Positions 3,001 through 64,000 of a DNA stretch of 64,000 nucleotides are shown one piece after another (the stretch's first letter is position 1; every line of letters starts with the position of its first letter). The stretch covers positions 23,274,063-23,338,062 of the forward strand of contig NC_092565.1 of assembly GCF_037975245.1 (NCBI RefSeq). Direction: 5' to 3'. Position numbers and translations under genes: made by a program. Origin of the DNA: Apostichopus japonicus. Lineage: Eukaryota. The notes beneath the pieces are model-generated. The model searched no databases. It was not told where the DNA came from and saw only the letters and a list, made by a program, of their open reading frames with translations.

Positions 3001-6000
3001 TGCATTACGTATCTATTTTCGCCTTAAAGTTTACTATGAAATATAGAAAACATTACTCATCCTTCTAAAGTTTCCCAGGTCCCCTAAATTATTGACCCCC
3101 TCTGTAGCCTTCTCTGACCCCACGTGGCCCTTCATCAGCCCTCACTATACCTGACTGAATTCAAATAAAGCCGGGTCTCGATGTAATTGGTCGTTATCAA
3201 GAGTCAACATGGTCTACAACAAGCTTCCATTGGACTAACAGATTTGTTAGGCTATGAACCAGTTTTGTGTACGTTTCTCGTCTTCATTTTTAGCCTCGCT
3301 TTTAACTGATCCTCTGCTACGCAGCTCCATAAAATTGTGACGTTTGTTTGGACAATACTCGACTAAATATAGTATGCATATTCATTATATGAAGGCATTT
3401 CGCGATGTTGATTTGGAATTCCTATATATACCTTGTTGGCGTAGAAACATGAGAGTTGCACATTTTGCGGCTCCTTCACATGGAGAAATGCATGAAATGT
3501 GAAACTCGTAACGGCAGGGTCAACCATGACTACACCCAGGCGTATGGTGCGATATGTATTAATAACCCAGAAATACTCCAGGCATTTATCGGGTCAATGT
3601 GAATAGAGAAATCAAATGTCTTGGAATATAATGTTTCCCAGTTATGATGCATGCTATATAGACACAAACTGGCCATGTCGAACTAAACTTTCAAGCTTTA
3701 TTATCTTAGTTATACACAAATGATGTAATCAGCACCCCATTTTAATTATAAAAAATAGTACATAAATAATAATAATAACACATTCACAACATCTTATGTA
3801 CTGCATTCAGTGGTTTCATATTTAATTTGCCCCGGAATGCCCAAATCTTTCACCTTTTTTTTTAATTTTAATTATTTTCTTGTCTATTGAATGAGATATC
3901 GTTTCAACTCCACAACCAATTTTTGTTTACCACATACACCGTACGCACAATTTTACCGCCTATCACGTTTCCTACACTACTAAGTTTTCATGGTAACTAT
4001 TATTTTTTTTTAAAGCAGGTTAGATCAATTTCTAGCCAAGAGCTACAGGGTACTACAGATGGGACTCTTGAAGGGATATGGTAGGTACTTCATCCAACAC
4101 AGCGGGTCCGTAAGGAGGGGTAGAATTAAGTTTCATTTCCAATTGAGTGAAAGCTTGCCTTAAGAGGTGACCCATTGAGGGTACCTCAAAAGCTACTAAA
4201 GCTTCACACCACTTGAGTCAAAAAAGGCCGGTCAATCAAGGTTCATATACAAAGTTGCCTCTTCTTCTCTCTGTCTGCTGATAGATTCCAAAGTGGAGAG
4301 TTTACTATCTCCCTTCAATGTTTGTTATCCTCTTTGAAATGACATGAAAACTGTCAATACGAACAAAGCATCTCAAGAGCTATTGTGGTGGATTACTGTA
4401 AAGGTAAGCCCCCAGGTAAACAGGTCTGCTCAGGTATCTTTTGGGGGGTTGTTTCTTTGTTTACTTTGAAGAACCCAACAGGACGAGTCGGGTGTGAATT
4501 CAGTATTCAAAACTAGATTGCCGTCAATTATTTACCTATTGTCATCGTTAGGGACTAATGAAGTTGTTAGTTGCTACTGACACTTTTGGTCAAACTTGGC
4601 TGGATGACGAGCCTACCTGTTCAAAAACGGATCGAGGGAGGATTTGGGTCTTTTAAAAAAAAACACTTGGACCAACAGGGGGTCTTCTTGTACTTAGTAT
4701 ATATACCCCCATTGGTTGATCACATATCCTCGGTCTTTTCTTCCAAACTTTTAATTGGGACATCCAGGAGAGATGAGGGGTGCGAAATTAGTAAGATTTC
4801 ATGATTTTACAATCTCTCAAGTGGGGCAGAACTACGGAAACAACAAAAACGTGACGTAATCTTACAAGGCACTTGAATTTTTGTGAGAAACCCTATCGTT
4901 TTTAGCTGTTGATCACACACGGAGTTTCTCGTAATCTAAATGAGGAAGAAGTCATCACGTTATTGACACAAATATCACTGACAGGTTTGGTTGCTAACGT
5001 GTAGTGGAACAAGTGAACACAAATGGACGTATAAATGAGGCTGTTTTTGAGAGGGGGAGGGTAGGGGGCTGTGGTGTTGAAGAACTTTAGAAGTCCCTGC
5101 TCTCAGTCAATGTTTTTTTTTCTATAACCATTATTTTAAATTGTTTATTGTTTATATTTTACAAATAACTCTCGGAATGACAGTGGCTGATTCACCTAGT
5201 TTTAGCACGCGCATAAACCATTGGGTCATCTCACTATAGAAACAATCCAACTTAATTAAACAAAGGATGTTTTAATGGCTTTAAGAATCATGGTTGCAAT
5301 GATTTACAAAACTTGTCAAAGAAAAAAAACAGGTGTTGAATGTCAGCCAAAGATGAGATTCCAATTTGTTACACATTTACAAGAAAATCTAGTTTCTTCA
5401 GTTGCTAGAATTAATAAAACAATGGATTACATTATAACCATGTATTCTATACAGAGAAGCCGAAGTTATAATCAATTTCATCTGAATTCAACGAGCTTTC
5501 CAAGCAGTTAGCGGCATGAATTAAAAATAAATATCTTGTTACCCTGGGTATTTGTTCTACATAATTATGTCATGCAATCCATTATTTCCTAATAATTGTC
5601 CGATAATGACATAACAACACTGAAAATTTGATTCATAAAGTCATTCTTTAAGGGGATAATCAATATTTCCTAGCTATACATGTACATAAAAGTGGTCACT
5701 ACAAATGCTAAAGTTCTGCTACACTCGGATGGTATATACTGACAACTTGCACAAGGACATCCAATTGTCTTATTTTATACTCCTGATATATCTAGGGTAT
5801 TATATTGATAAAATCCAATTTTAGTATGCTAAATGTGGGAACAATGGGTGGACATAATGTACGCTAATGAAGGATTGTAATGTTATTATTATAGTGTTGA
5901 TATGTGCACACGATAAAACTTTAAAATAAACTGAAATACCTATGTTCAGGTCACATGCATTCCCTTTTGGGGTTACCAAGATGGTCATTAGTGGCGTGTA

Positions 6001-38000: not shown

Positions 38001-41000
38001 TATCCCAAAATTTGAATGATGATTTCAATGTGAATAAAAGACAGAAGAGAAGAAAGTGGGTTGTTTTGCTTAGTAATTCTAAGGTGATTTTTGTTTCTCT
38101 TTGTCTGTGAGGTAGGATTTCTCACCCCCCCCCCACCCAGATCCTTCTACATCAAAGAGAAAAGCATATTGTGGACATTTCCCCCCCCCCCCCCTCCACT
38201 ATTCTTAGAAGCTGCAAATCCACTGCTACTATGTAATCAAATCTCTTGATTTCTTTTTCTTTTGTCAGTTCTGTAGAGAGGACAGCTGGCCACGAGGCAG
38301 CTCGCAAGGAACAAGAGGCCAAAGGACATCTGGAGAGACAACGACTGGTGAATCAGAAGGAAGCAGAGAAAGCCAGGAGTATTTTATACGAACTCAGAGC
38401 CCAGACATCGGCTGTGGAATCAACAGGGCAGGCCAAAGCAGAGGCACAGGTGAGGCACCAGCTAGTACACTCTTTCAGGAAATAGTAAACATGTTAAAGT
38501 GATTACTTCAAAGTGATTACTTTCTGGTAGCAGGAGCAAATTGTACCAAAAATTTGGTCACAAAAAGTCAGCATGACTGATAGGTAGAAATTACTTGGGG
38601 AAAACTGTTATATTGGTAGATAAAACAACACATACTGCCCACCCCACCCCTCCCCCCCTTGCCCCACTTCATTCTCTCCTTGAGTTTGTAGATGCTTATC
38701 TGGTGAAGCGAGTGTCAACCAACTTTTACTCGGTTAGACTAAGATGTTGAGATGAAGTTTTCACCCTCCAGTGTGGTATATTATTACATTGATATATCCA
38801 TACAACATCCTGTGGCTATATTTGCATGGGTCCTTAGAACCCCAGACTCCTCCACCCAAAGAAAGAAAACACTTGTGTTTCAACTGTCTCCTCAGGCTCT
38901 GCATATCCTTCTCAGACTACCACTAAATAAGTATAAGAAAAATGGTGAGCTGCCCTCTCCCCCTGTCGCTACCAAAGAAGAAGGAGATTTAGACACCCAT
39001 AAACTTCAAGGTGGCTATGCATTGATATGTATATATATCACTAATGAGTGAGTTATTGTTTATGTTCAGGCTCAAGCTGAGAAGCTCTTGATAGAGGGCC
39101 AGAGCAGTATTGATGAAGCAACCCTGAAACAGGAGGCTGAGAACATCATTCACTCTACCGACCTGGAGATACAGACAATGCTGAGAGAGGCAGAACTGTC
39201 TTACCAGCAGCAACAGGACACGCTGGAGTTAGATACGAAGAAGAGGATGGCAGAAATAGAGGTGAAATGGACGTTAATGGGTCCTGAATGGGTGGTGAGG
39301 TGGGAGGAAAGGGTGTATAGGGACCAAGGTTTGTGTACTAAAGAAGGCTTGGAGGAGGGAGGAAAGGGTGAAAGCAGGAACAAGGTTTCTGTACTAAAGA
39401 ATGCTTGGAAGTGGGAGGAAAGGGTGTATAGGGACCAAGGTTTGTGTACTAAAGAAGGCTTGGAGGAGGGAGGAAAGGGTGTAAGCAGGACCAAGGTTTG
39501 TATACTAAAGAAGGCTTGGAAGTGGGAGGGATGGGTGTAAGGAGGACCAATGCCTGTGTACTAAAGAGTGCCTGGAGGAGGGAGGAAAGGGTGTTAGTAG
39601 GACTAAGGCTTGTGTACTAAAGATTGCTTGGAGGAGGGAGGAAAGGGTGTAAGCAGGACCAAGGCTTGTGTACTAAAGATTGTCTGGAGGAGGGTGGGAA
39701 GGGTGTAAGTAGGACTAAGGCTTGTGTACTAAAGATTGCTTGGAGGAGGGAGGGAAGGGTGTAAGTAGGGCCAAGGCTTGTGTACTAAAGACTTAAGACT
39801 AAAGTACTGGCTGGTACATCTGTATCAAGTTGGGCATTGTTTGCTTTGTAAGTGATTTCTTGAAATAAAGTCTCTTTGTCAAGGTAGACATGTTTTTTTC
39901 ATCTTGCAGGTTGAGAAATTTGCATCCATGGTGGACAGTATTGGAATTGAGACCATCACAAAGATAGCCATTGCTGGACCTGCATCCAAGGTAAAGATTA
40001 CCTTAGAATGACCAGAGGTTTATTCACCATACATTCCTGGTTTTAAGTAATTGTATACCTGGAAGTGTTTTATGTTTGCTTTAGTTTCTCTTCTGATAGC
40101 TTGGTTAAAATGTACCTGATATCATATTTAGAAACTCAGTTTTCCCACACAGTTTCCAAAGTACATTTTGTGTTAAGTGTACTAAAATTGCAGTCTACTC
40201 GTTAAGGGAAATCGATAATATGTGAATAATTACAATCTAGGACACTGAAAATGGGAGGGCTGTCGATGCCCTATGATGGTCAAGTCTGCCTATAGAAAAA
40301 CAGTCTTCCTCAAATTCAATTGAGCATTAATAACTTGTTACTTGATAGCACAAACTACCCAAAGTACTGCCATTAGGATTCATCCTTGAGCGCACCTAAT
40401 TAATTGACCAGTCACCTGTATGATTGTAAACACAAGTGCTCTTTTGGTCAGCACTACTTTCCTGTATGAAGACAAATTTGGCTTGACCACTGAAATAGTA
40501 CACTTTGTGTTTAAACATGAATTTGTGTAAAGGAGCGTTCAGTATGGCTAGCATTATGAACTCGGGTCGATATTAAATCTCCCTTTTTTGGCCCAAAACA
40601 GGGGACTCGGTTGGTATTTGCTATAGGCAGGGTAGACCATAATGCCTTCTCTCAGCCCCTTAATCCTTTTCCATCTCCTGTTCTGTTTTTTCCATTCTTC
40701 TTGGTTTAATTGAGAGAAGCAGTCAAGTATGGAAAAAGTGTTTACTTGATGCTTACAGGCCAGACTATCTAAAAGAGGATAAAGTCTTAATTCAAAGTAA
40801 AAAGAAAACGAGAGAATTACCTTTCTATTGTTATTACCTGTTAGTTTCTTTGGCCAGTCAGTGAACTACCATTGGTATATTCTGTGAGCTGCACTCACTG
40901 ACTTTTGTGAGGGAAGCAAAAATGGTAACCATTTTGTACAAATGGACAATCTTATATTGAAACAACCTTACTGATTATGGTTTGTTGTTTAAGTCAATAA

Positions 41001-48231: not shown

Positions 48232-48595
48232 GAGTAGAGGTTATCTCAAAGCAGAGGTTATCTCAAAGTAGAGGTTATCTCAAAGAAGAGGTTATCTCAG
48301 AGCAGAGGTTATCTCAAAGTAGAGGTTATCTCAGAGTAGAGGTTATCTCAAAGTAGAGGTTATCTCAGAGTAGAGGTTATCTCAAAGTAGAGGTTATCTC
48401 AAAGTAGATGTTATCTCAAAGTAGAGGTTTTCTCAGAGTAGAGGTTATCTCAAAGTAGAGGTTATCTCAAAGTAGGGGTTATCTCAAAGTAGAGGTTATC
48501 TCAAAGTAGAGGTTATCTCAAAGTAGGTGTTACCTCAAAGAAGAGGTTATCTCAAAGTAGAGGTTATCTCAAAGTAGAGGTTATCTCAAAGAAGC
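48232..48595. repeat. 17-bp tandem repeat (agaggttatctcaaagt)n, about 21 copies
   Basis: read directly, with minor variants (gcagaggtt, aagaggtt, gtagatgtt). Confidence 0.85.
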
Positions 48596-49799: not shown

Positions 49800-50160
49800 A
49801 TTTATTTATAAATCAAAATTAATCTCATAGTTTAGTCTTCACCACGAGACCAATGAGCGTTGCCCTATGCTGCAGTCTCCATGGGTGAGACCACTAAATT
49901 TAGTCTCACACTTTGGTCTGCACCGTGAGTCCATGAAAATATGCCTATAGATTGGTCTGCACCGTGGGAACATTGAATTTAATCTCATAGTTTGGTTTTC
50001 AGTTGTCAGACCGCTAAGTTTAAAATGGTCTCATAGCGTGGTCTTGACAGAGAGACCATTGAACCAGTCACCAATATAGTTTGGTCTTCATTGTGAGACT
50101 GTTTGGTCTCATAGTTTTGGTCTTCACTGAGATGCGGTTGAGTCTGTCTCCGTATCTACC
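49800..50160. repeat. degenerate short tandem array (units like gtctcatagtttggtcttcaccgtgag) in the PANK 3' region
   Basis: Repeated tggtct/gtctca/gagacc motifs at 20-40 bp spacing. Overlaps the PANK stop codon region. Confidence 0.5.
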
Positions 50161-50282
50161 TCTCTGCCGCTGCTGTGGCTGCCATTTTGCTCCTTGTGAG
50201 GTGATGAGATGATATCTGTGTTGCTGCTTTCGTGGGAATAACCCATGAGTTGAAGGAAGGCACCTACGGATCCAAAATAGCC
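50124..50282 (-). CDS. PANK: PANK terminal coding exon (stop TGA 50126-50124)
   Basis: [52 protein letters not shown]. Acceptor tttag. The C-terminal tail is longer than in vertebrate PANKs, so the downstream boundary is less certain. Confidence 0.65.
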   Translation of the reverse strand, partial: GYFGSVGAFLQLMGYSHESSNTDIISSPHKEQNGSHSSGREVDTETDSTASQ

Positions 50283-53200
50283 CTAAACCGCCACAAAAAA
50301 AGAGAGAGATGAAAATAAGACAACAACAGAAGAAAACAAATAAGCCAATGGTCTACAATAGCATTAAGTTTATGATAGAAACAACACTGTAATGATTTTG
50401 AATACTGTCGATTTCAAGTGATCAACAAGGCCTTTTAGACTGACTTTATATGTAGACATATTTTAACATGAAAAGCGATAGGGTTCACTAAGTGGGACAT
50501 ACCTTCCAAGAAGTAACATTACACACAGCTGTGCTTTTTGAGTTATCAAGTGTTGCTTTATCACTATACATAGGTGAAACTACACAGTAGGTATGCAAGT
50601 CACCCAAGCTTTACTTTTGTAGATGACATATTACAAGTTTTAAACATCAATCTCTTTTGACTTTGAAACAGGATAGATCTTTTTTGCACCCTCCAAAGTT
50701 TACAAATTATACAAAGTGTTTCATACCTGCTGATATCAAGTGACCTATGACCTTCACCAGAAAGGGAGACCTTTATAATCAGCATAACTATCATTGATTT
50801 GTGGTTGGCTTACTACAAGCCACGCTGTGCAGTTTCCTACGATATATTTCAAGGAGGGTTGGAGAGTATGTACAAGGAGGAATGGACAGGGAAATGAAGT
50901 GGCCATGATACAATTACTCAGCTACCGATTATGTGGACTTCCCGCAACATTATCTCATTGAAGAAGCCATCGATATCTATAATAACCAAAAAATTATAAA
51001 AAGATGATGAAGAATTATTAAAGATAATATCCAGACTAACCTCATGCTCTAGGAAGAGAGCTTTTAATGCGCCTCCCGACCAATAATCCATTGCGTAGGC
51101 CAAGAGCTTCATTGCTATTGGGTTAACTCTCAGGAAATTGCCCACAAATACTACACGAGTTAATTTCTGCAAGAAGAAAGAGAAAAGATTGGGAGTGAAA
51201 CTCTGTACTACAGCAATCAAGATGTGATGTTCTTCTTGTACTTGAGGACACTGACCTGAATAAAAGTGAATTTTTATTGTTTTTATGGCTATACGCAAGA
51301 ATTGTCCATAGAAGATATCAGTGTTCTGTTATAGATTAGACATTTTGCTGCAATGTCACCTTAGACACTACGTCACTTTTGTACACACAATTCTTGAGGC
51401 ATTTGTTACCTCCAGGGCAGTAAACCAGTAGCATTGTTGCGATATGAGATTTTTCCATATCGATATACCGTTAATTCTGTTCTGCTATATATATTGTCAA
51501 GAGTCATTCCAATTTCAACTCAGCAAACTCCAGTCACAAAGAGCAGTACTCTTTGCATGATTGATATAATTTAGTCCAATTATCAGTACCAGTAAGACAC
51601 ATTTTTCACCCCAGTTGATTTTTTCTGACAATCCATTTTCAACTAATCAACTTATAAAAAAATGGAAGCAACAACATTTCAGTTCAAGAACATATACCAT
51701 ATTTCTTTGATTTTAGTTTTTTCAAATGTCTTTTCTTTTGCATTCGTGATCAATTTTTATAAGATGTTGCACTAAAATTTAGGATCAGGTGATCTGGTGG
51801 CGGTTTCAATATAAAAAAGTAGAATTTTTATACTTTTTATTTTAAATACGTACACTCAATAAAATGGTTAAAACAAAAATATGGTTATGATTTTACAAGG
51901 GTTGCACCACTTCCATCAATCTGACAATGTCTTCTGAGCATTCATCTACTTTAAATCGTTCTTGTTTTGAACCATCAATCGTTAACTCTCTGAGTTGAAG
52001 CACTCACCAAATTCATGGCAGTCATCATAGCCAGAGAGCCGATATTGTTTGTGATCGTAACAAGAGTTGCTCGGGCTAGATCAGCTTTTGAAGCTTCCTC
52101 TCTCTTCTCTTTTCGATGCATAAATCCAAAGCTGTGGGAGAGTAGAAATATCACTCCACATGTTAACTCAATTAACCAAAAAGTACATTAACAGTAGAAG
52201 TTAACAGTACATTAACAGTTAACAGTAGAAGTTAACAGTAGAAGTTAACAGTAGAAGTTAACAGTAGAAGTTAACAGTACATTAACAGTAGAAGTTAACA
52301 GTAGAAGTTAACAGTTAACAGTACATTAACAGTAGAAGTTAACAGTAGAAGTTAACAGTTAACAGTACATTAACAGTAGAAGTTAACAGTAGATTAACAG
52401 TTAACAGTACATTAACAGTAGGAGTTAACAGTAGGTTAACAGTTAACAGTACATTAACAGTAGAAGTTAACAGTAGAAGTTAACAGTTAACAGTACATTA
52501 ACAGTAGAAGTTAACAGTAGATTAACAGTTAAGAGTACATTAACAGTAGAAGTTAACAGTAGATTAACAGTTAGGTACATTAACAGTAGAAGTTAACAGT
52601 AGATTAACAGTTAACAGTACATTAACAGTAGAAGTTAACAGCAGAAGTTAACAGTTAACAGTAGAAGTTAACAGTAGATTAACAGTTAAGAGTACATTAA
52701 CAGTAGAAGTTAACAGTACTGTAGATTAACAGTTAAGAGTACATTAACAGTAGAAGTTAACAGTAGATTAACAGTTAAGAGTACATTAACAGTAGAAGTT
52801 AACAGTAGATTAACAGTTAAGAGTACATTAACAGTAGAAGCTAACAGTAGATTAACAGTTAACAGTACATTAACAGTAGAAGTTAACAGTAGATTAACAG
52901 TTAACAGTACATTAACAGTAGAAGTTAACAGTAGATTAACAGTTAAGAGTACATTAACAGTAGAATTTAACAGTAGATTAACAGTTAACAGTACATTAAC
53001 AGTAGAAGTTAACAGTACATTAACAGTTAACAGTACATTAACAGTAGAAGTTAACAGTAGATTAACAGTTAACAGTAGAAGTTAACAGTAGATTAACAGT
53101 TAACAGTTCATTAACAGTAGAAGTTAACAGTACATTAACAGTAGAAGTTAACAGTAGATTAACAGTTAAGAGTACATTAACAGTAGAAGTTAACAGAAGA

Positions 53201-56200
53201 TTAACAGTTAACAGTACATTAACAGTAGAAGTTAACAGTAGATTAACAGTTAACAGTACATTAACAGTAGAAGTTAACAGTAGATTAACAGTTAACAGTA
53301 CATTAACAGTAGAAGTTAACAGTAGATTAACAGTTAACAGTACATTAACAGTAGAAGTTAACAGTAGATTAACAGTTAACAGTATATTAACAGTAGAAGT
53401 TAACAGTAGATTAACAGTTAACAGTATATTATAACCGAAATTACGTTTCGTTAGAAAAGAGTAGAAAAAACAAATCAGCTCATTAAACACTGCAAACGAT
53501 ATTGAAAGACCTGACTTTCAAACTAAAAGGAATTATTTCATACTATATAGTAACCTACCTGTTGGCTACTGTGCCTCCTGGCAATTCAAACCTGTTGTAG
53601 GCTACTCCATATATATCTCACATTAACTAGTCTATCTGCCAACCTTACAGTTATTTAGGTTGTGATGAGTACCAGAGAGAAACATCAAACAAGGACAGAA
53701 TGAAACATGCACATCACAGAGAAGGCTTAATGTACAGTAACCTACCTGCTGGCTACTGTGCCTCCTGGCAATTCAAACCTGTTGTAGGCTACTCCATATA
53801 TATCTCACATTAACTAGTCTATCTGCCAACCTTACAGTTATTTAGGTTGTGATGAGCACCACAGAGAAACATCAAACAAGGACAGAATGAAACATGCACA
53901 TCACAGAGAAGTTTTAATGTACAGTAACCTACCTGCTGGCTACTGTGCCTCCTGGCAATCCAAACCTGTTGTAGGCTCCTCCATATATATCTCACATTAA
54001 CTAGTCTATCTGCCAACCTTACAGTTATTTAGGTTGTGATGAGCACCACAGAGAAACATCAAACAAGGACAGAATGAAACATGCACATCACAGACAAGGC
54101 TTAATGTACAGTAACCTACCTGCTGGCTACTGTGCTTCCTGGCAATCCAAACCTGTTGTAGGCTCCTCCATATATATCTCGCACTAACTTGTCCACCTTT
54201 TGGTTGTCCCCCTGAGTAGCCATGTCAATGGCTTCTTCAAACGTTTCACAGCCGGTGAGAAGACAGCATAGACCTAGAAATGTACCTCCCCCCAGACTGT
54301 TGAGGAGAAGGAAACAAAAGGGATTAAACTTTTCAAATAAATATTCATATTTAAATGAATATATGACAGTGTGCATTTAGGGTCACCAATAAATGTACTA
54401 CGTACCACAAACCTTTCACAAAATATGTTAAAATGTTGCCAAGAAGGAGGTCAAGGGTTTGACCTGTACGGAAAATGCAAACTTTAATGCTGTCCTCAAG
54501 TCTTGGCATAAGGCTAACCTTCCAAAAAAATTATCAACAACTTATTTTTAAATTTTATCTAAATGCATATAAATTATATATCGTCAAAAGAAATAAGAAA
54601 CAGCTTAGTTAGTTCACAAGCTGGGCAAGCTTAATTTGCCAGACAATTCTGTACACTACAGTATCAACCAATAACAGGCAAAAACCTCACTGTATGCAGT
54701 CAAGAAACAAAAGTTGCAAGAATATGAAGAGTATGATATTCTGTTATTTACAATGTATGATAAAAATCTAACAAAAGTCTAACAAATGAAACATCACCCT
54801 TGCCCGAATAATGTTCCTGTCTCTTAATAATGGCTGTACTATTTTTAACTGTCCGAAGAGAAATTTGAATATCTCAGAGGCATTTCTCTTTTTCCTACCC
54901 TCTGTTTTGTCTTTTTTGACAAAGAGATAGCCTTACCTTGTTCCAGAAACTCTTTGAAAATCAGTTTGGGAATGTACTGCTAGGATGCTGACCCCTGAGC
55001 CTATGTTTACGACCAGATAAGGGTAAGGGTCACGAAAGTCATACGGCGTTTTGACACTGCTCTCTGGGTTACGCGGGTCAGAGTGGTTCCAGTAGTAACA
55101 CTCGTTGGGGATCAACCGGTCGATGAAATGAATTCCATGAATCAGACAGTTGAGTTCATCGTGTTTCTGTAGTTTCATGTTTACGATCTATAAATTCAAA
55201 GTCATAACACATAAACTATTGAGCAGATATTTACGAGTGACGGCTTTTGGTGGAAGCCCTCCTCATGAAACCAGGAGTGACCGGTCTGAGAGGACGTACA
55301 GTGCTGAGAAAAGGTTACCAGCTGACTCAGATATGGTAGAGGGAGGATGCGGATGTCTGGGGGAGACAGGTAAGCGAGTAGTGACGTATAAAATTCATTC
55401 ACTGGACAGGAATGACTTGGATATTGCATTGTACATGGTGACAGATGATGATATAAATGTATTAATATGTCACAGTGCTACACCAAAATGCCCAATTCCG
55501 TTCCAACCCTCAGATAGGATTTGTTTTGTACCAAAGAAGGACAGATAAGTGACTAGAAAATTTTGAACGTATTTGGAAAAGTGCCAAGAAAAAATAATTT
55601 TTAACCTACAGTAGCACAGGATACAGATCCAAAGTCTGTTGAAGTCTTGTATATATATGAAATCCTCATTTTTGGTTGACGTATTGTCGAAATGATGTAG
55701 GGCCTGTTCACACTAGAACTGAGTCGAGCACAGATCTCTGAGTTTAAACATGGAGTTGAATTCAAAATTCTGGTGTCAACGCAATTCAGATACTGTATTT
55801 TAAACTTAAATTTTTCTGGAAATAAAGTTTCAGAATGAATAGACAAATACATAACATCCAAAACTTACATTAAAGAAGTCTTTTTCAAATTTGAATGCGC
55901 CACCACCAGTGGCATGGATGACTTCTGCCAAACTGGACAACTTCTTCTCTTTCACCAGATGCAGGAATGTCTCCATCTCGTAAGTGGGGAATCTAATGAA
56001 ATGGAGTGACCCCGTGTGACCCAGTACGGTCACGTTGGGTATCTCCAGGTACACGTCCCGGACACCTGTGTCACCGTAGGCAGTGTTTGACTTGAGGTAG
56101 TGTTGAATCGTTTCTAGGGCATCTGGTTCCACATCGGGGTCATTGTCCCCTGGGAGGACGTCGTTTGGCTCGAAGTACACCAACTTGGCAAGAGTACCGC

Positions 56201-56225
56201 CTATGTCCACACCAAACCATGGCAT
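50124..56225 (-). CDS. PANK: pantothenate kinase (PANK1/2/3-like) gene, CDS span, 6 coding exons found (about 397 aa). An upstream 5' exon is possible.
   Basis: Spliced translation [20 protein letters not shown]...HFIRFPT...[13 protein letters not shown]...[14 protein letters not shown]...[27 protein letters not shown]...[11 protein letters not shown]...[14 protein letters not shown]...[26 protein letters not shown]...[19 protein letters not shown]. Collinear with animal type II PANK. All junctions GT-AG and phases consistent. Confidence 0.88.
51041..51166 (-). CDS. PANK: PANK coding exon e
   Basis: [42 protein letters not shown]. Acceptor ttgcag and donor gttagt. Confidence 0.8.
52008..52131 (-). 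CDS. PANK: PANK coding exon d
   Basis: (S)[41 protein letters not shown]. Acceptor cacag and donor gtgagt. Confidence 0.8.
52183..53430. repeat. minisatellite of about 1.25 kb (gttaacagtagaa / gttaacagtacattaacagtagaa units) in a PANK intron
   Basis: Read directly. About 100 copies of 12/24-mers. Explains the spurious ORF 53062..53490 ([13 protein letters not shown]...). Confidence 0.9.
53550..54119 (-). repeat. three tandem copies of about 180-190 bp duplicating the PANK exon c 3' end plus donor plus proximal intron
   Basis: Each copy carries ...ggagtagcctacaacaggtttgaattgccaggaggcacagtagccagcag|gtaggttactgtacattaa... (minus sense). That is about 90% identical to the authentic exon end [16 protein letters not shown]|gtaggt at 54120-54170. 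Copies start near 53550, 53738 and 53918. Confidence 0.8.
54120..54296 (-). CDS. PANK: PANK coding exon c
   Basis: (S)[58 protein letters not shown]. Acceptor aacag and donor gtaggt. Confidence 0.85.
54937..55187 (-). CDS. PANK: PANK coding exon b
   Basis: [33 protein letters not shown]...[30 protein letters not shown]. Acceptor tttatag and donor gtaagg. Confidence 0.85.
55250..55400 (+). repeat. dispersed SINE-like repeat, copy 3 of 4 (in PANK intron)
   Basis: acagtgctgagaaaaggttaccag...gatgcggatgtctgggggagacaggtaagcgagtagtgacgta. Confidence 0.4.
55869..56225 (-). CDS. PANK: PANK coding exon a (ATG 56225-56223)
   Basis: [23 protein letters not shown]...[15 protein letters not shown]. Donor gtaagt. 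A cag acceptor sits 2 nt upstream of the ATG (56230-56228), so this may be an internal exon. Confidence 0.8.
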
Positions 56226-58004
56226 AGCTGTAAGAGGTAGAAGACAGTGATATGTAGTAACGAAAGGGTGTTAAAACATAGCTCTGATCATGTAAAACCT
56301 GTCAATCTACTGCAGAAAGAATCCTCGATGATATTGCAATCTCATTACTTTGTTGTAAATACTGTTTAATATTTAATAATTAATCAGGTAATAACGTATC
56401 CAGTATGGCATCCCAAAATGCAATGCAAAATGCTTGAAATGCTTAAGAAGTGCACTTGATGCATAGCAGTTTTGTACACAGAAACCATATATAGTAATTC
56501 ATAAGATATATAAATTCAGAACCCATCCAAACTGCTACACAAAATCTGAATACTTCATTATTTCCCGATGGGGAAGGGAGGTGGTGGGAAATGGGTGGGG
56601 AGGGTGGGGAAGGGGAGGTGGTGGGGCACGAGTGTGAAAGTGGTGGGGAAGAGGTTATCCACCACTCTTTTTTTTTAGAATGTGAAGCAACATTTAAAGA
56701 GAGAGTTGTCATATATTTCTACTTGAATCGTCAAACAATAAATTAAACCTTAACAATTAAAATGATCTTCATAATTTCAACTTTCACGAGGAACGCTCAC
56801 AGTTTGTGATGAGATGGTAGTGAGAGAGGAAGGGGAGATGCATGGTAGCAAAAGTGGATCCATCATCCACTGTTATCAATTGTCTTAAAACAAAACCAGC
56901 TGCAAAATGAGACATCCTTTGGGTAATCTCACCCAAAGTTGACAAGGACAGTATGCAATATTTACAGCATGAACGAGACTTATTGGGTAATAATATCAAT
57001 TTCCCTTTATCTCACTGGGAGAAGTTCAGCCCAAATGTGCACCTGTTTCAAACTTCAATAGGATTTAATAGAATTTTATGCAAAACTATTCAAGTGGTGC
57101 AGACACCAGGCAGAGGTCATCTATTGTTTCCATTGTTTGCCCAGAATTTTTCTTCTTTTGTCTACGTTTAAAATCATAATCAACTCTACCAATCTGTAGC
57201 ATATATGGTTACTGAGCAAACTCCTACCCATCTAGCAGTGAAAATCGCTCTACTATTTAACAGTAATAACAGCTCAGTTATAGGTTCAAACAGTAGTGTC
57301 ACCACAGGTGAAGGTGGGAATCTTAGGAAAGTTTACCTATTTATTCTCAACAATGTAGAAACTTGCTTAATTTGTCTGTAGTTTGCAGGGGCAGTGAAAA
57401 AATCTCAAAAGTGCCCTTTTAATAAATAGGATGTGCCCACTTTTGAAAAATCACGCTCTGATTTTCCATTTATTGCAATTAAAATTGACATTATTATTGA
57501 ACATTATTGAAACAATGCCCTTTTGTTGACAATTTCAATAAAATTATACGTGAAAAAAGTGCACAGTTGTTGAAAACTTGACGAAAGAACATTCAATCAA
57601 AAAGTTCCCTTTTTATAAAAATAAATTTTTTTTTAAAATTTACAAATACTGGAATTTGTAGTACCGAATGAACAGATGATCCATTTGTCGGAAGGTTTTA
57701 AGCTTTAATGTAACCTTTTGCCTCCTCAATCAAAGTCACATGTCCCTCCCCCCCCCCCAGCTCCTCCAAGTTTGTGCCCCATCACCCCAGATTGAACCTA
57801 CTTCTGCAACCCCTGATATTAAATCTTATCAATAAATAACTTTACTATTAAACTGACTGTGAGACCACAGTTTAGCCCTTCCCCTCCTAGCTACTTTACA
57901 AGTTCATCAAATTTAATTCATGCTTGGAGATCAATCACTCATAAAATTTTTGCTAACTAAACGTGTAGTTTTCTTCCTGGGTGGTAGATTCGGAAGGAGG
58001 TGTA

Positions 58005-60114: not shown

Positions 60115-61040
60115 ATTGTTTAATTGTTACACTATGAGCTGTTTAATTGTTACACTATGAGCTGTTTAATTGTTACACTATGAGCTGTTTAATTGTTACA
60201 CTATGAGCTGTTTAATTGTTACACTATGAGCTGTTTAATTGTTACACTATGAGCTGTTTAATTGTTACACTATGAGCTGTTTAATTGTTACACTATGAGC
60301 TGTTTAATTGTTACACTATGAGCTGTTTAATTGTTACACTATGAGCTGTTTAATTGTTACACTATGAGCTGTTTAATTGTTACACTATGAGCTGTTTAAT
60401 TGTTACACTATGAGCTGTTTAATTGTTACACTATGAGCTGTTTAATTGTTACACTATGAGCTGTTTAATTGTTACACTATGAGCTGTTTAATTGTTACAC
60501 TATGAGCTGTTTAATTGTTACACTATGAGCTGTTTAATTGTTACACTATGAGCTGTTTAATTGTTACACTATGAGCTGTTTAATTGTTACACTATGAGCT
60601 GTTTAATTGTTACACTATGAGCTGTTTAATTGTTACACTATGAGCTGTTTAATTGTTACACTATGAGCTGTTTAATTGTTACACTATGAGCTGTTTAATT
60701 GTTACACTATGAGCTGTTTAATTGTTACACTATGAGCTGTTTAATTGTTACACTATGAGCTGTTTAATTGTTACACTATGAGCTGTTTAATTGTTACACT
60801 ATGAGCTGTTTAATTGTTACACTATGAGCTGTTTAATTGTTACACTATGAGCTGTTTAATTGTTACACTATGAGCTGTTTAATTGTTACACTATGAGCTG
60901 TTTAATTGTTACACTATGAGCTGTTTAATTGTTACACTATGAGCTGTTTAATTGTTACACTATGAGCTGTTTAATTGTTACACTATGAGCTGTTTAATTG
61001 TTACACTATGAGCTGTTTAATTGTTACACTATGAGCTGTT
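60115..61040. repeat. 23-bp satellite (ctgtttaattgttacactatgag)n, about 40 near-identical copies
   Basis: read directly; almost no inter-copy divergence. Confidence 0.95.
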
Positions 61041-61388: not shown

Positions 61389-61473
61389 ACCAAACCAGAA
61401 CTAGTATTGTTAGAAACAGGTGACAAAACGCCTACTGTGGTTTCTAACCTCTAGACATACAATCAGCGTCCAT

Positions 61474-61536
61474 AGCCTAGTGATTAGGGTGTCCAAGTGG
61501 TTAGGGAGGCCCGGGTTCAAATCCCGGTAGAGGCTG
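61474..61536 (+). ncRNA. tRNA-like fragment / SINE head (box A-like agtggttaggg, box B-like ggttcaaatcc). Not a complete tRNA.
   Basis: T-arm ccggg-ttcaaat-cccgg is perfect, but no anticodon arm fits between the D-like and T regions. The D-like motif is duplicated (tagtgattaggg / agtggttaggg). Confidence 0.3.
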
Positions 61537-64000
61537 GAAGTTGTTTCACTGTTCTGGATTTTACAATGTTCACATTACAATTCAATATATATATATTTTC
61601 TATTTCTACAATTCTGTGATTTTCAGTGTGTGGTCATATTGCATTAATTGTTGGGGAGGTAATGTCAATGGTACCGACAGAAAACGGATAGATTCTATTA
61701 TAAGCCAAGTCAGTCGCATCCTAGGCGAACGTCAGCAGTCAGTGAACACCTCATATCATCTTCACCTTCAAAGTAAACTTGTTGGGGTTCTCAACAACTA
61801 GCCACCCTCTACACATTAATTTGGAAAGTGCAATAATACCCCGCAGTGGGCGGATGAGACTACCCCGTGCCATTACGAATCGTTACAAATCCTCCTTTAT
61901 CCCTCGTTGTATTAAACTTCATAATGAATCTTTTACTCGTTAGGTCACTAATCTTGCTCATTGTGCAATCCAATGTTTCACAAGTATCTCTGGTGCTGTT
62001 TTACTGTTTTTTGTATTTTACCGTTTTTACGTATCTTGCCAGCTTTGTTTTAAGTCTTATGTCTTAGTATTTGAGAGTCTGATATATTTTGTGTGTATTT
62101 TATGTACTGTACGTATGTTTTATATTGTGAGCAATCAATTGCCCAGCTTGGGATGCAATAAAGAGAATCTGAATCTGAATAGATATAAATATATGTATAT
62201 ATATATATGTATAATACATGGTACAGTAAATATTGATGTATTGTTCATAGTCATTATACAGATTATGATAAAAAAATGTTTATCTGGGGTCACAATACAA
62301 GTTCTGTAGACTTTACACACTACTGTGCTATCCAGTAGATCCAGTAGAGTTTGCCGTAAAACCCTGATTTAGAGCTCGGTTAGTATTAATGTAGTAAATT
62401 ATATTACAAAAAGCATGTTGAGCCTTTTTTAATTTCAGGCCATTTCCTCCTGAAGGACCCAGTGCTAGGGATTCACCAAGGACATTCTTATATTGTATTT
62501 GTACAGTATGTCTCAACATTTCTTAACTTTTCAAAGATAAGTTATAGTACTACTGCCACATTAGTTGCAGGGGCAAGGGTCAACTTTGACATGGAGTTCT
62601 GTTTATAATGTCACCGTTAGTTTCTGCCCTGCTTAAAAATTTATTTAGTACACAGTAGGGAAAAATAATGACTGATATTATCATTGATTTAAAGAATGAC
62701 TTTAACAGAAAACACACACACAAATCATCAAAGAAACAATTTTCCATCAAAATAGCATCACAATTAATTTTGATTCCGTTGCAGTAGTGGGGAAATACCC
62801 ATGGCACAACTGTCAAAATGACGGATTACAGACTATATTTTTGTTGGGTTGAGTATTACAAACTCTGATAATTTCAATAATCACGCACACATAACCGAGG
62901 ATGAGTCAGGGGCCAAATGGCCATTACAACTTGCCAAATGACCTCTCAGAGAAGAAAGGTACAGTATGCTAGGATCTGTTTTTAATTCTCAGTAGTCACC
63001 AGCCAATTAACAACTCTCAGATATTACTTTGTGTTCCAAACAAGAAAACTATAAAACACCAAAAAAACAGAAAACATAAATAGTATGTGTAACCTGGTTA
63101 CTGAGTGATAGTTTTATACACTACATCATTTAGTATCAATGATAGGTTAGCCCCTGAACAAGGTACCACTTTTCACAGAAAATGGACCCTGTTCACCTGG
63201 TCTTCGAAAATGCAACTATAAAATTAATAGGCATCCCCTTTCAAGGGATTTTACAAGTGAAACAATAATGTATCAAATTACCTCTGTATGAGAAGGATAT
63301 TAGTATGAATGGCATAATAATTCACAAATATATTAATTTTGTGTGAGAAGACAAAATTTAGATTAAATGGTTATTAAATCTTTAATAAAGGATAGTGCAA
63401 AGTTATAACCACTTTATAGATCTCTCAGTTTACTGCTGTGTGAATACCACATAGCTTGGTTAGTTTACCCCAAAGTTACAACCCAATAGAAGACCAAATA
63501 AAAGACTTTCAAAATTAATATTAGCTCCTTTTGCCTTTAGTTTATCATCAAGTCACCAATCCTAAATATAAACTGGATTTTGTGTATAATTTACAGTAAT
63601 AATAACATTGTACCACAAACCTGGTTGGCCTTTCTCCACCTGAAATTTTCTCGACCTGGAAGGCATCCTGTCGGCTGAATATACAGTAGTCCGAGTAAGA
63701 TCCTACAAATTCTCCTTCACATAAAAACCTGTTGAAAATTTCAGTTTGTGACTCCTAGTTAAAGAAAAACTGTGTTGTACTTTCAACTACCTACATCATA
63801 TTACAATCTCAGAAGTATGTGAGGTGAAAGAATTGTCAAACGTCTTGGATGTCAAAATTTACATTAAAAAGAAGGCAATGACTTAAAGGCTCAGAGACCA
63901 AAGATTGCACTCAAAGTTCAAGTTATATAATTTCAGTTCTCAAATGAAAAACAGGGGTGAGAATGATGATAATCTTCACACCAATGGAAACAGTAGCTAC

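Follow-up and report, generated by a model that had tools for sequence, protein, structure and literature searches.

A tandem repeat of an exon-intron junction with intact 5' splice sites in a PANK3-like gene of Apostichopus japonicus

Results

The window analysed in this study is a stretch of 64,000 nucleotides of Apostichopus japonicus contig NC_092565.1. Its G+C content of ~0.36-0.37 agrees with the 36.75% that has been published for this species (PMC5638244). The minus strand carries a gene for a type II pantothenate kinase that is PANK3-like (hereafter PANK). The predicted protein matches the Pfam domain Fumble (PF03630; 1.7e-124) over profile positions 1-334 of 334, with 415.8 bits against a cut-off of 28.5. 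Six exons were located by tblastn with a PANK3-like probe that served for locating only, and the exon boundaries were set on AG and GT sites. The joined open reading frame is intact and comprises 397 amino acids counted from exon A. A search with exon peptides yielded only fragments covering one exon from other species, with an identity of at most 83%. With the full predicted protein as a query, echinoderm pantothenate kinases were retrieved. The best protein cluster (8 members) includes A. japonicus XP_071828600/603 and PIK55479.1, to which the window protein is 100% identical, and Holothuria leucospilota KAJ8025981.1, to which it is 92% identical. The features of the gene are as follows.

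63619-63666, minus strand: first coding exon of PANK isoform X2
50124-56227, minus strand: span of the PANK3-like coding exons A-F
55869-56227, minus strand: exon A (tblastn, AG and GT boundaries)
54937-55187, minus strand: exon B (tblastn, AG and GT boundaries)
54120-54296, minus strand: exon C, 177 nt, phase 1 to 2, ending in ...GLPGSTVAS (tblastn, AG and GT boundaries, RNA-seq contigs)
52132-54119, minus strand: intron C-D, 1988 nt in the window
52008-52131, minus strand: exon D, acceptor partner of the authentic donor (tblastn, AG and GT boundaries, RNA-seq contigs)
51041-51166, minus strand: exon E (tblastn, AG and GT boundaries)
50124-50282, minus strand: exon F, which holds the stop codon (tblastn, AG and GT boundaries)

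Intron C-D consists almost entirely of repeats. From the donor side it contains 579 nt of a tandem array, 109 nt of unique sequence, 1200 nt of a minisatellite and 100 nt with the acceptor. The minisatellite, which was identified with Tandem Repeats Finder, fills 60% of the intron. The array has a period of 187 nt and 3.5 units, and it occupies positions 53541-54198 of the minus strand, in and just upstream of the intron. Tandem Repeats Finder delimited it to 53549-54193, with a period of 187, 3.4 copies, 96% matches and 0 indels, and a repeat search returned three 284-nt copies at a spacing of 187 nt across 53541-54198. Each unit is composed of the last 79 nt of exon C and 108 nt of the intron, so that the unit spans the exon-intron junction and is repeated head-to-tail, as in a boundary tandem repeat. 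Two kinds of segment were distinguished in the array, namely 'a' with 97 nt (the 79 from the exon plus the first 18 of the intron) and 'b' with 90 intron nucleotides, which gives the layout a1-b1-a2-b2-a3-b3-a4, followed by unique intron sequence.

54102-54198, minus strand: array segment a1
54012-54101, minus strand: array segment b1
53915-54011, minus strand: array segment a2
53825-53914, minus strand: array segment b2
53728-53824, minus strand: array segment a3
53638-53727, minus strand: array segment b3
53541-53637, minus strand: array segment a4, the partial terminal copy of 97 nt
53432-53540, minus strand: unique intron spacer between array and minisatellite, aligning to positions 4976-5050 of the second A. 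japonicus locus (L002, see below) and then interrupted by indels
52232-53431, minus strand: minisatellite with a 42-bp unit, 28 copies and 90% matches

An initial annotation of this DNA had described a PANK exon-intron junction in three extra tandem copies, and the 187-nt array of 3.5 units bears this out. The sizes given there, ~50 nt of exon and ~130 nt of intron per copy, have to be corrected to the 79 and 108 nt that were measured, and the last copy is partial. Likewise, an identity of ~90% to the authentic junction does not apply throughout: it amounts to 96% for copy 2, 95% for copy 3 and 91% for copy 4. The same annotation held that the copies keep an open frame over the duplicated codons. 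This is correct for the last 19 of these codons. In the PANK frame, however, each copy has two stop codons (TAG and TGA) within the first 7 duplicated codons, reading QID(stop)LM(stop)DIYG... The open frame in the copies is without consequence in any case, because read-through past the real donor (AGg TAG) meets a TAG after one codon.

The 187-nt unit does not occur outside the array in the 64-kb window. A dispersed repeat or transposon as the origin of the unit was therefore rejected within the window, as the unit is confined to the array. Exact look-ups were performed for array-specific open reading frames, namely that of exon C, one of 65 amino acids spanning copy 2 and three copy-specific antisense ones of 37 amino acids, and none of these was on record.

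Several other repeats were observed in the window. In the 5' intron of PANK, between the first coding exon of isoform X2 and exon A, a 23-bp unit is present in 40.2 copies that are 100% identical (60117-61040; Tandem Repeats Finder score 1848). Such perfect identity is unusual and points to a very recent expansion or an assembly effect. Downstream of the 3' end of PANK, a 17-bp repeat is present in ~21 copies (48233-48591), and ~19 copies are found at the second A. japonicus locus (L002 8575-8879). A 56-bp repeat of 8.9 copies (39297-39791) lies inside the sole G+C-rich patch of the window (38-40 kb; G+C 0.44, GC skew 0.19). On the plus strand, positions 61466-61535 match the Rfam tRNA family with 35.5 bits (gathering score 29) and were not called by ARAGORN; this match could reflect either a tRNA-derived repeat or a pseudogene.

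Exon C ends in ...GGA AGC ACA GTA GCC AGC AG/gtaggt, where the slash marks the exon-intron boundary. Closer examination of the array revealed four identical CAG/GTAGGT donors, the GT of which starts at 54119 in the authentic site and at 53932, 53745 and 53558 in the copies. A 40-nt pattern ending in CAGGTAGGT had exactly 4 matches in the window, with ends at 54114, 53927, 53740 and 53553, against 0 matches in 100 shuffles.

54114-54122, minus strand: authentic 5' splice site CAG/GTAGGT with its GT at 54119-54118, used in four transcript contigs
53927-53935, minus strand: decoy donor 1 in copy 2, CAG/GTAGGT (pattern search)
53740-53748, minus strand: decoy donor 2 in copy 3, CAG/GTAGGT (pattern search)
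53553-53561, minus strand: decoy donor 3 in the partial copy 4, CAG/GTAGGT with an A at position -4; the positional orthologue in L002 is CAG/GTCGGT

That the donor consensus is intact in the copies had been claimed beforehand, and upon re-examination all three decoys indeed read GTAGGT and are unmutated. They had been placed at ~53928, 53738 and 53550, which is within 4-8 nt of their actual positions. The view that the copies lie in the downstream intron, directly after the real donor, also held, and the 9-mers of the donors are identical to that of the real one. According to the pairing rules for U1, each of the 9-mers can form 8 Watson-Crick pairs plus one G-Psi wobble. As the four 9-mers are identical, any strength model that is based on 9-mers will score them equally, and strength cannot discriminate between them.

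When any of the three decoys is joined to exon D, the protein is predicted to end in ...VASR, as codon 263, counted from exon A, is the first stop. The anticipated truncation of the kinase by decoy use is thereby substantiated, since the predicted end ...GSTVASR falls on residue 262 of 397. In the array, no AG was preceded by 18 nt with a pyrimidine content of 60% or more. In the absence of such a pyrimidine-rich acceptor the copies cannot be cassette exons or recursive sites, and both a poison cassette exon and a recursive splice site (ratchet point) were rejected.

The 17 nt on the 3' side of the first three donors (AGGTTACTGTACATTAA; 54101-54117, 53914-53930 and 53727-53743) are 82% complementary to the 42-bp unit of the minisatellite (52199-53028). 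This complementarity has a perfect 9-bp core and could allow pairing in the pre-mRNA, but it is probably a chance match in AT-rich sequence. RNA structure that hides the decoys was rejected, because this stretch of 17 nt with 82% complementarity was the only one found and is also present at the authentic donor, so that it provides no discrimination.

Donor choice was assessed in four assembled RNA-seq contigs from separate SRA runs (L003-L006), which show only the dominant stable isoform. All four match positions 54298-54120 and then continue directly in exon D (54120 joined to 52131). The junction reads ...GTAGCCAGCAG/CTTTGGATTT, with T as the first base of exon D in L003. Over exons C-F and 702 nt of the 3' end, contig L005 shows 100% identity to the window, and the other contigs differ from the window at 1-2.5%. 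The identity of L005 implies that a window-like haplotype is expressed and spliced canonically, though the individuals sampled by RNA-seq may have lacked the 3.5-unit allele. Decoy-spliced junctions were not detected in the four assembled contigs, from which minor or NMD-degraded isoforms would escape, and none of the 8 proteins in the cluster is a truncated ...VASR product.

The window was compared with a second A. japonicus locus (L002) from the independent 2017 assembly GCA_002754855.1, which is based on Illumina and PacBio data. The initial annotation had suggested a second haplotype as a source of information on copy number, and a difference was indeed observed: the array of L002 comprises a-b-a' only, which corresponds to 1.5 units versus 3.5 in the window. 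It should be noted that this is a comparison of assemblies rather than reads. The single decoy donor of L002, CAG/GTCGGT, is mutated at position +3. Intron C-D measures 520 nt in L002 versus 1988 nt in the window, and only ~1.4 copies of the 42-bp unit are present at the place of the minisatellite (L002 5209-5268), which constitutes a second large length difference in this intron. Over the region compared (49800-57000), the flanking introns of the two loci show substitutions at 4-11% of positions and, in addition, indels. The differences in the exons are synonymous only; all 8 in exons B-E leave the protein unchanged, and exon C has three synonymous SNPs. The L002 decoy has 10-11 private differences from each of the window decoys. 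Together with the flank divergence of 4-11%, these private differences imply that L002 does not represent the window sequence in collapsed form. The published heterozygosity of A. japonicus is 1.59% (PMC5638244), and the present region is well above this value. The window and L002 represent two deeply diverged haplotypes of a species that is very polymorphic.

At the genomic locus of H. leucospilota (L007), the intron has the same position and a single junction, ...GCTAGCAG/gtagga, and no duplicate of the junction is present. The decoy sites are thus absent from Holothuria and read GTCGGT in L002, and they show no significant excess conservation. Zero changes were counted in the 27 decoy donor positions, for which P=0.08 given 26 differences in 291 nt. 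When the mutated donor of L002 is included, the probability of at most one change in 36 positions is 0.09. Later changes in the exon-derived parts of the copies are amino-acid-changing (G>V, G>E, S>G and S>N). Nothing in these comparisons indicates selection to keep the decoys.

The distribution of variants within the array is informative on its history. All decoys in both haplotypes have five shared derived bases, at 'a' positions 3, 5, 9, 15 and 18, which implies that the first duplication predates the split of the haplotypes. The terminal copies a4 of the window and a2 of L002 have in addition T34, A90 and G95 in common and can therefore be regarded as positional orthologues. Segment a3 of the window carries the states of the terminal decoy at positions 1-63 and those of a1 from position 76 on, followed by b. 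This is the structure expected of the product of a mispairing of a' with a1 and a crossover inside the 'a' block. Segment a2 of the window and the b segments are further mosaics. Overall, the differences in the array cluster at its edges, with 5 differences in 18 bases on the 5' side and 3 in 8 bases on the 3' side, and the interior is near uniform. Repeated exchange would homogenise the interior of the array and would be unable to reach the edges.

Discussion

The array in intron C-D of the PANK3-like gene is likely to be a polymorphic, near-neutral and copy-variable intronic tandem repeat that arose by unequal crossing-over. Its history may have involved two steps. An old local duplication would have placed a second exon-C/intron junction 90 nt into the intron, giving the a-b-a' layout that both haplotypes carry. 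On the window haplotype, as the variant pattern suggests, b-a units would then have been added when a' mispaired with the authentic copy and crossovers fell within the 97-nt 'a' block, resulting in a-(b-a)x3. A recent unequal-crossover product had been one of the options put forward in the initial annotation, and it fits both the 1.5 versus 3.5 units and the recombinant a3. The internal decoy donors would be intact because crossover has recently copied the authentic donor region into them.

Where strong 5' splice sites are identical, a proximity rule favours the downstream one in vitro (Hodson et al. 2012, PMC3413131). This rule would favour the last decoy, but the assembled mRNAs use the first site instead. 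Exon definition is the likely reason for the use of the first donor in the productive mRNA. The acceptor of exon C and the authentic donor are 177 nt apart, whereas exons defined by the decoys would be 364, 551 and 738 nt long and would sit between introns of 640 and 1988 nt. The decoys would then be passengers that are essentially silent. If they were used, translation would stop one codon after the exon and the product would likely be an NMD substrate. Low-level or NMD-masked use of the decoys may occur.

Three other explanations have to be weighed against a near-neutral repeat. One of them is that the array represents a hypomorphic allele, of which the decoys are used appreciably, so that stop-containing transcripts are degraded by NMD and the kinase output falls with copy number without being selected. 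This seems unlikely, although four identical donor 9-mers with 8 Watson-Crick pairs and one wobble to the 5' end of U1 are present, the proximity rule predicts decoy use, and a stop codon lies directly after the authentic donor. The four independent transcript assemblies, one of which is identical to the window haplotype, contain the canonical junction alone, and the 8 proteins of the cluster include no product ending in VASR. Moreover, exon definition would disfavour exons that are extended to 364-738 nt and flanked by introns of 640 and 1988 nt. A related proposal, that the expanded array is a natural expression-lowering allele which directs a copy-number-dependent share of the PANK pre-mRNA to the decoys and NMD, appears doubtful as well. 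If true, the rate-limiting enzyme of coenzyme A synthesis would be tuned by repeat length from one individual to another, and the locus would allow the proximity rule for identical donors to be tested in vivo.

The number of copies could also be an assembly artefact, with the window count expanded or the 2017 count collapsed, in which case the copy-number variation would be unreal. Tandem repeats are indeed error-prone in assemblies, and the count in the 2017 Illumina and PacBio assembly could partly reflect collapse. Furthermore, the same intron also differs by the 1.2-kb minisatellite, and the exact look-ups of array-specific open reading frames found none on record. Yet the copies are non-identical, with nested recombinant variants that are unlike random error or simple expansion, and the a-b-a' core is present in both assemblies. 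The many private substitutions of the L002 decoy, the distance of 4-11% between the haplotypes and the other indels around the array likewise argue against an artefact, which we regard as improbable. Finally, regulated unproductive splicing had been proposed in the initial annotation. The decoys would then constitute a selected regulatory device, being maintained for regulated unproductive splicing (AS-NMD) of PANK. The window decoy donors are intact and their use would create a premature stop codon. However, the array is not fixed, as its copy number varies between the haplotypes and the L002 decoy has been mutated at +3 to GTCGGT; the duplication is missing in Holothuria; the donor sites lack significant excess conservation (P ~0.08-0.09 for unchanged donors); and the duplicated exon parts decay freely. 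Transcript support for decoy use is also missing, all four contigs being spliced from the authentic donor. A selected device is thus highly improbable, and the array is best read as neutral or slightly deleterious and not as a regulatory element.

Tandem arrays that carry repeated splice sites were reportedly described by Zhuo and co-workers in PNAS in 2007. The present array is of a kind that is already known, namely a variable tandem repeat at an exon-intron boundary. In human genes, variable internal tandem repeats at such boundaries are often polymorphic and can yield alternative splicing (De Grassi & Ciccarelli 2009, PMC2812944). As in these human boundary repeats, the unit of the PANK array is repeated head-to-tail, spans a junction with a splice site, is copy-polymorphic and could offer alternative sites. 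In the human cases, however, the repeated sites are documented in transcripts, often as new introns or isoforms, whereas for the PANK array the first donor alone is seen in transcripts. In addition, every alternative in the PANK array would give an immediate stop, and the host is a single conserved metabolic gene instead of a recently duplicated paralogue as in the human cases.

New introns are recognised to arise by tandem duplication of AG/GT proto-splice sites (Lehmann et al. 2010, PMC2891723; Hellsten et al. 2011, PMC3265369). AGGT intron gain according to the Rogers model resembles the present case in that a local tandem duplication with AG/GT leaves the mRNA unchanged and the extra copy is removed. 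However, the PANK duplication spans an existing junction and lengthens an old intron, and splicing involves the upstream GT and the old acceptor rather than the duplicated AG. Intron gain by tandem duplication was rejected here, since the intron position is shared with Holothuria, the transcripts splice 54119 to the old acceptor at 52132, and no additional intron has been formed.

The arrangement also resembles the duplicated 5' splice sites in model pre-mRNAs from the Eperon laboratory (PMC3413131), in which identical strong sites ~174-187 nt apart likewise share a single acceptor. By contrast with those model pre-mRNAs, it is the authentic site, the most distal of the four, that is used in the assembled PANK mRNAs. 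Poison exons and the alternative 5' splice sites of AS-NMD have in common with the PANK array that alternative use gives a premature stop upstream of further exon junctions. Such AS-NMD elements are typically conserved and seen in transcripts, whereas the PANK array is haplotype-specific and decaying, with no decoy use in the assembled contigs.

As it stands, the array is an intronic structural polymorphism, without evidence of function, in a marine invertebrate that is itself highly polymorphic. On a small scale, the locus neatly illustrates that unequal crossing-over maintains uniformity inside a repeat even as the edges drift apart. It also amounts to a natural experiment, in that an essential gene with copy-variable alleles contains four 5' splice sites which are identical, near-consensus and spaced 187 nt apart. 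The locus could thereby reveal how the correct donor is selected in an animal cell in a situation where the strength of the sequences offers no discrimination.
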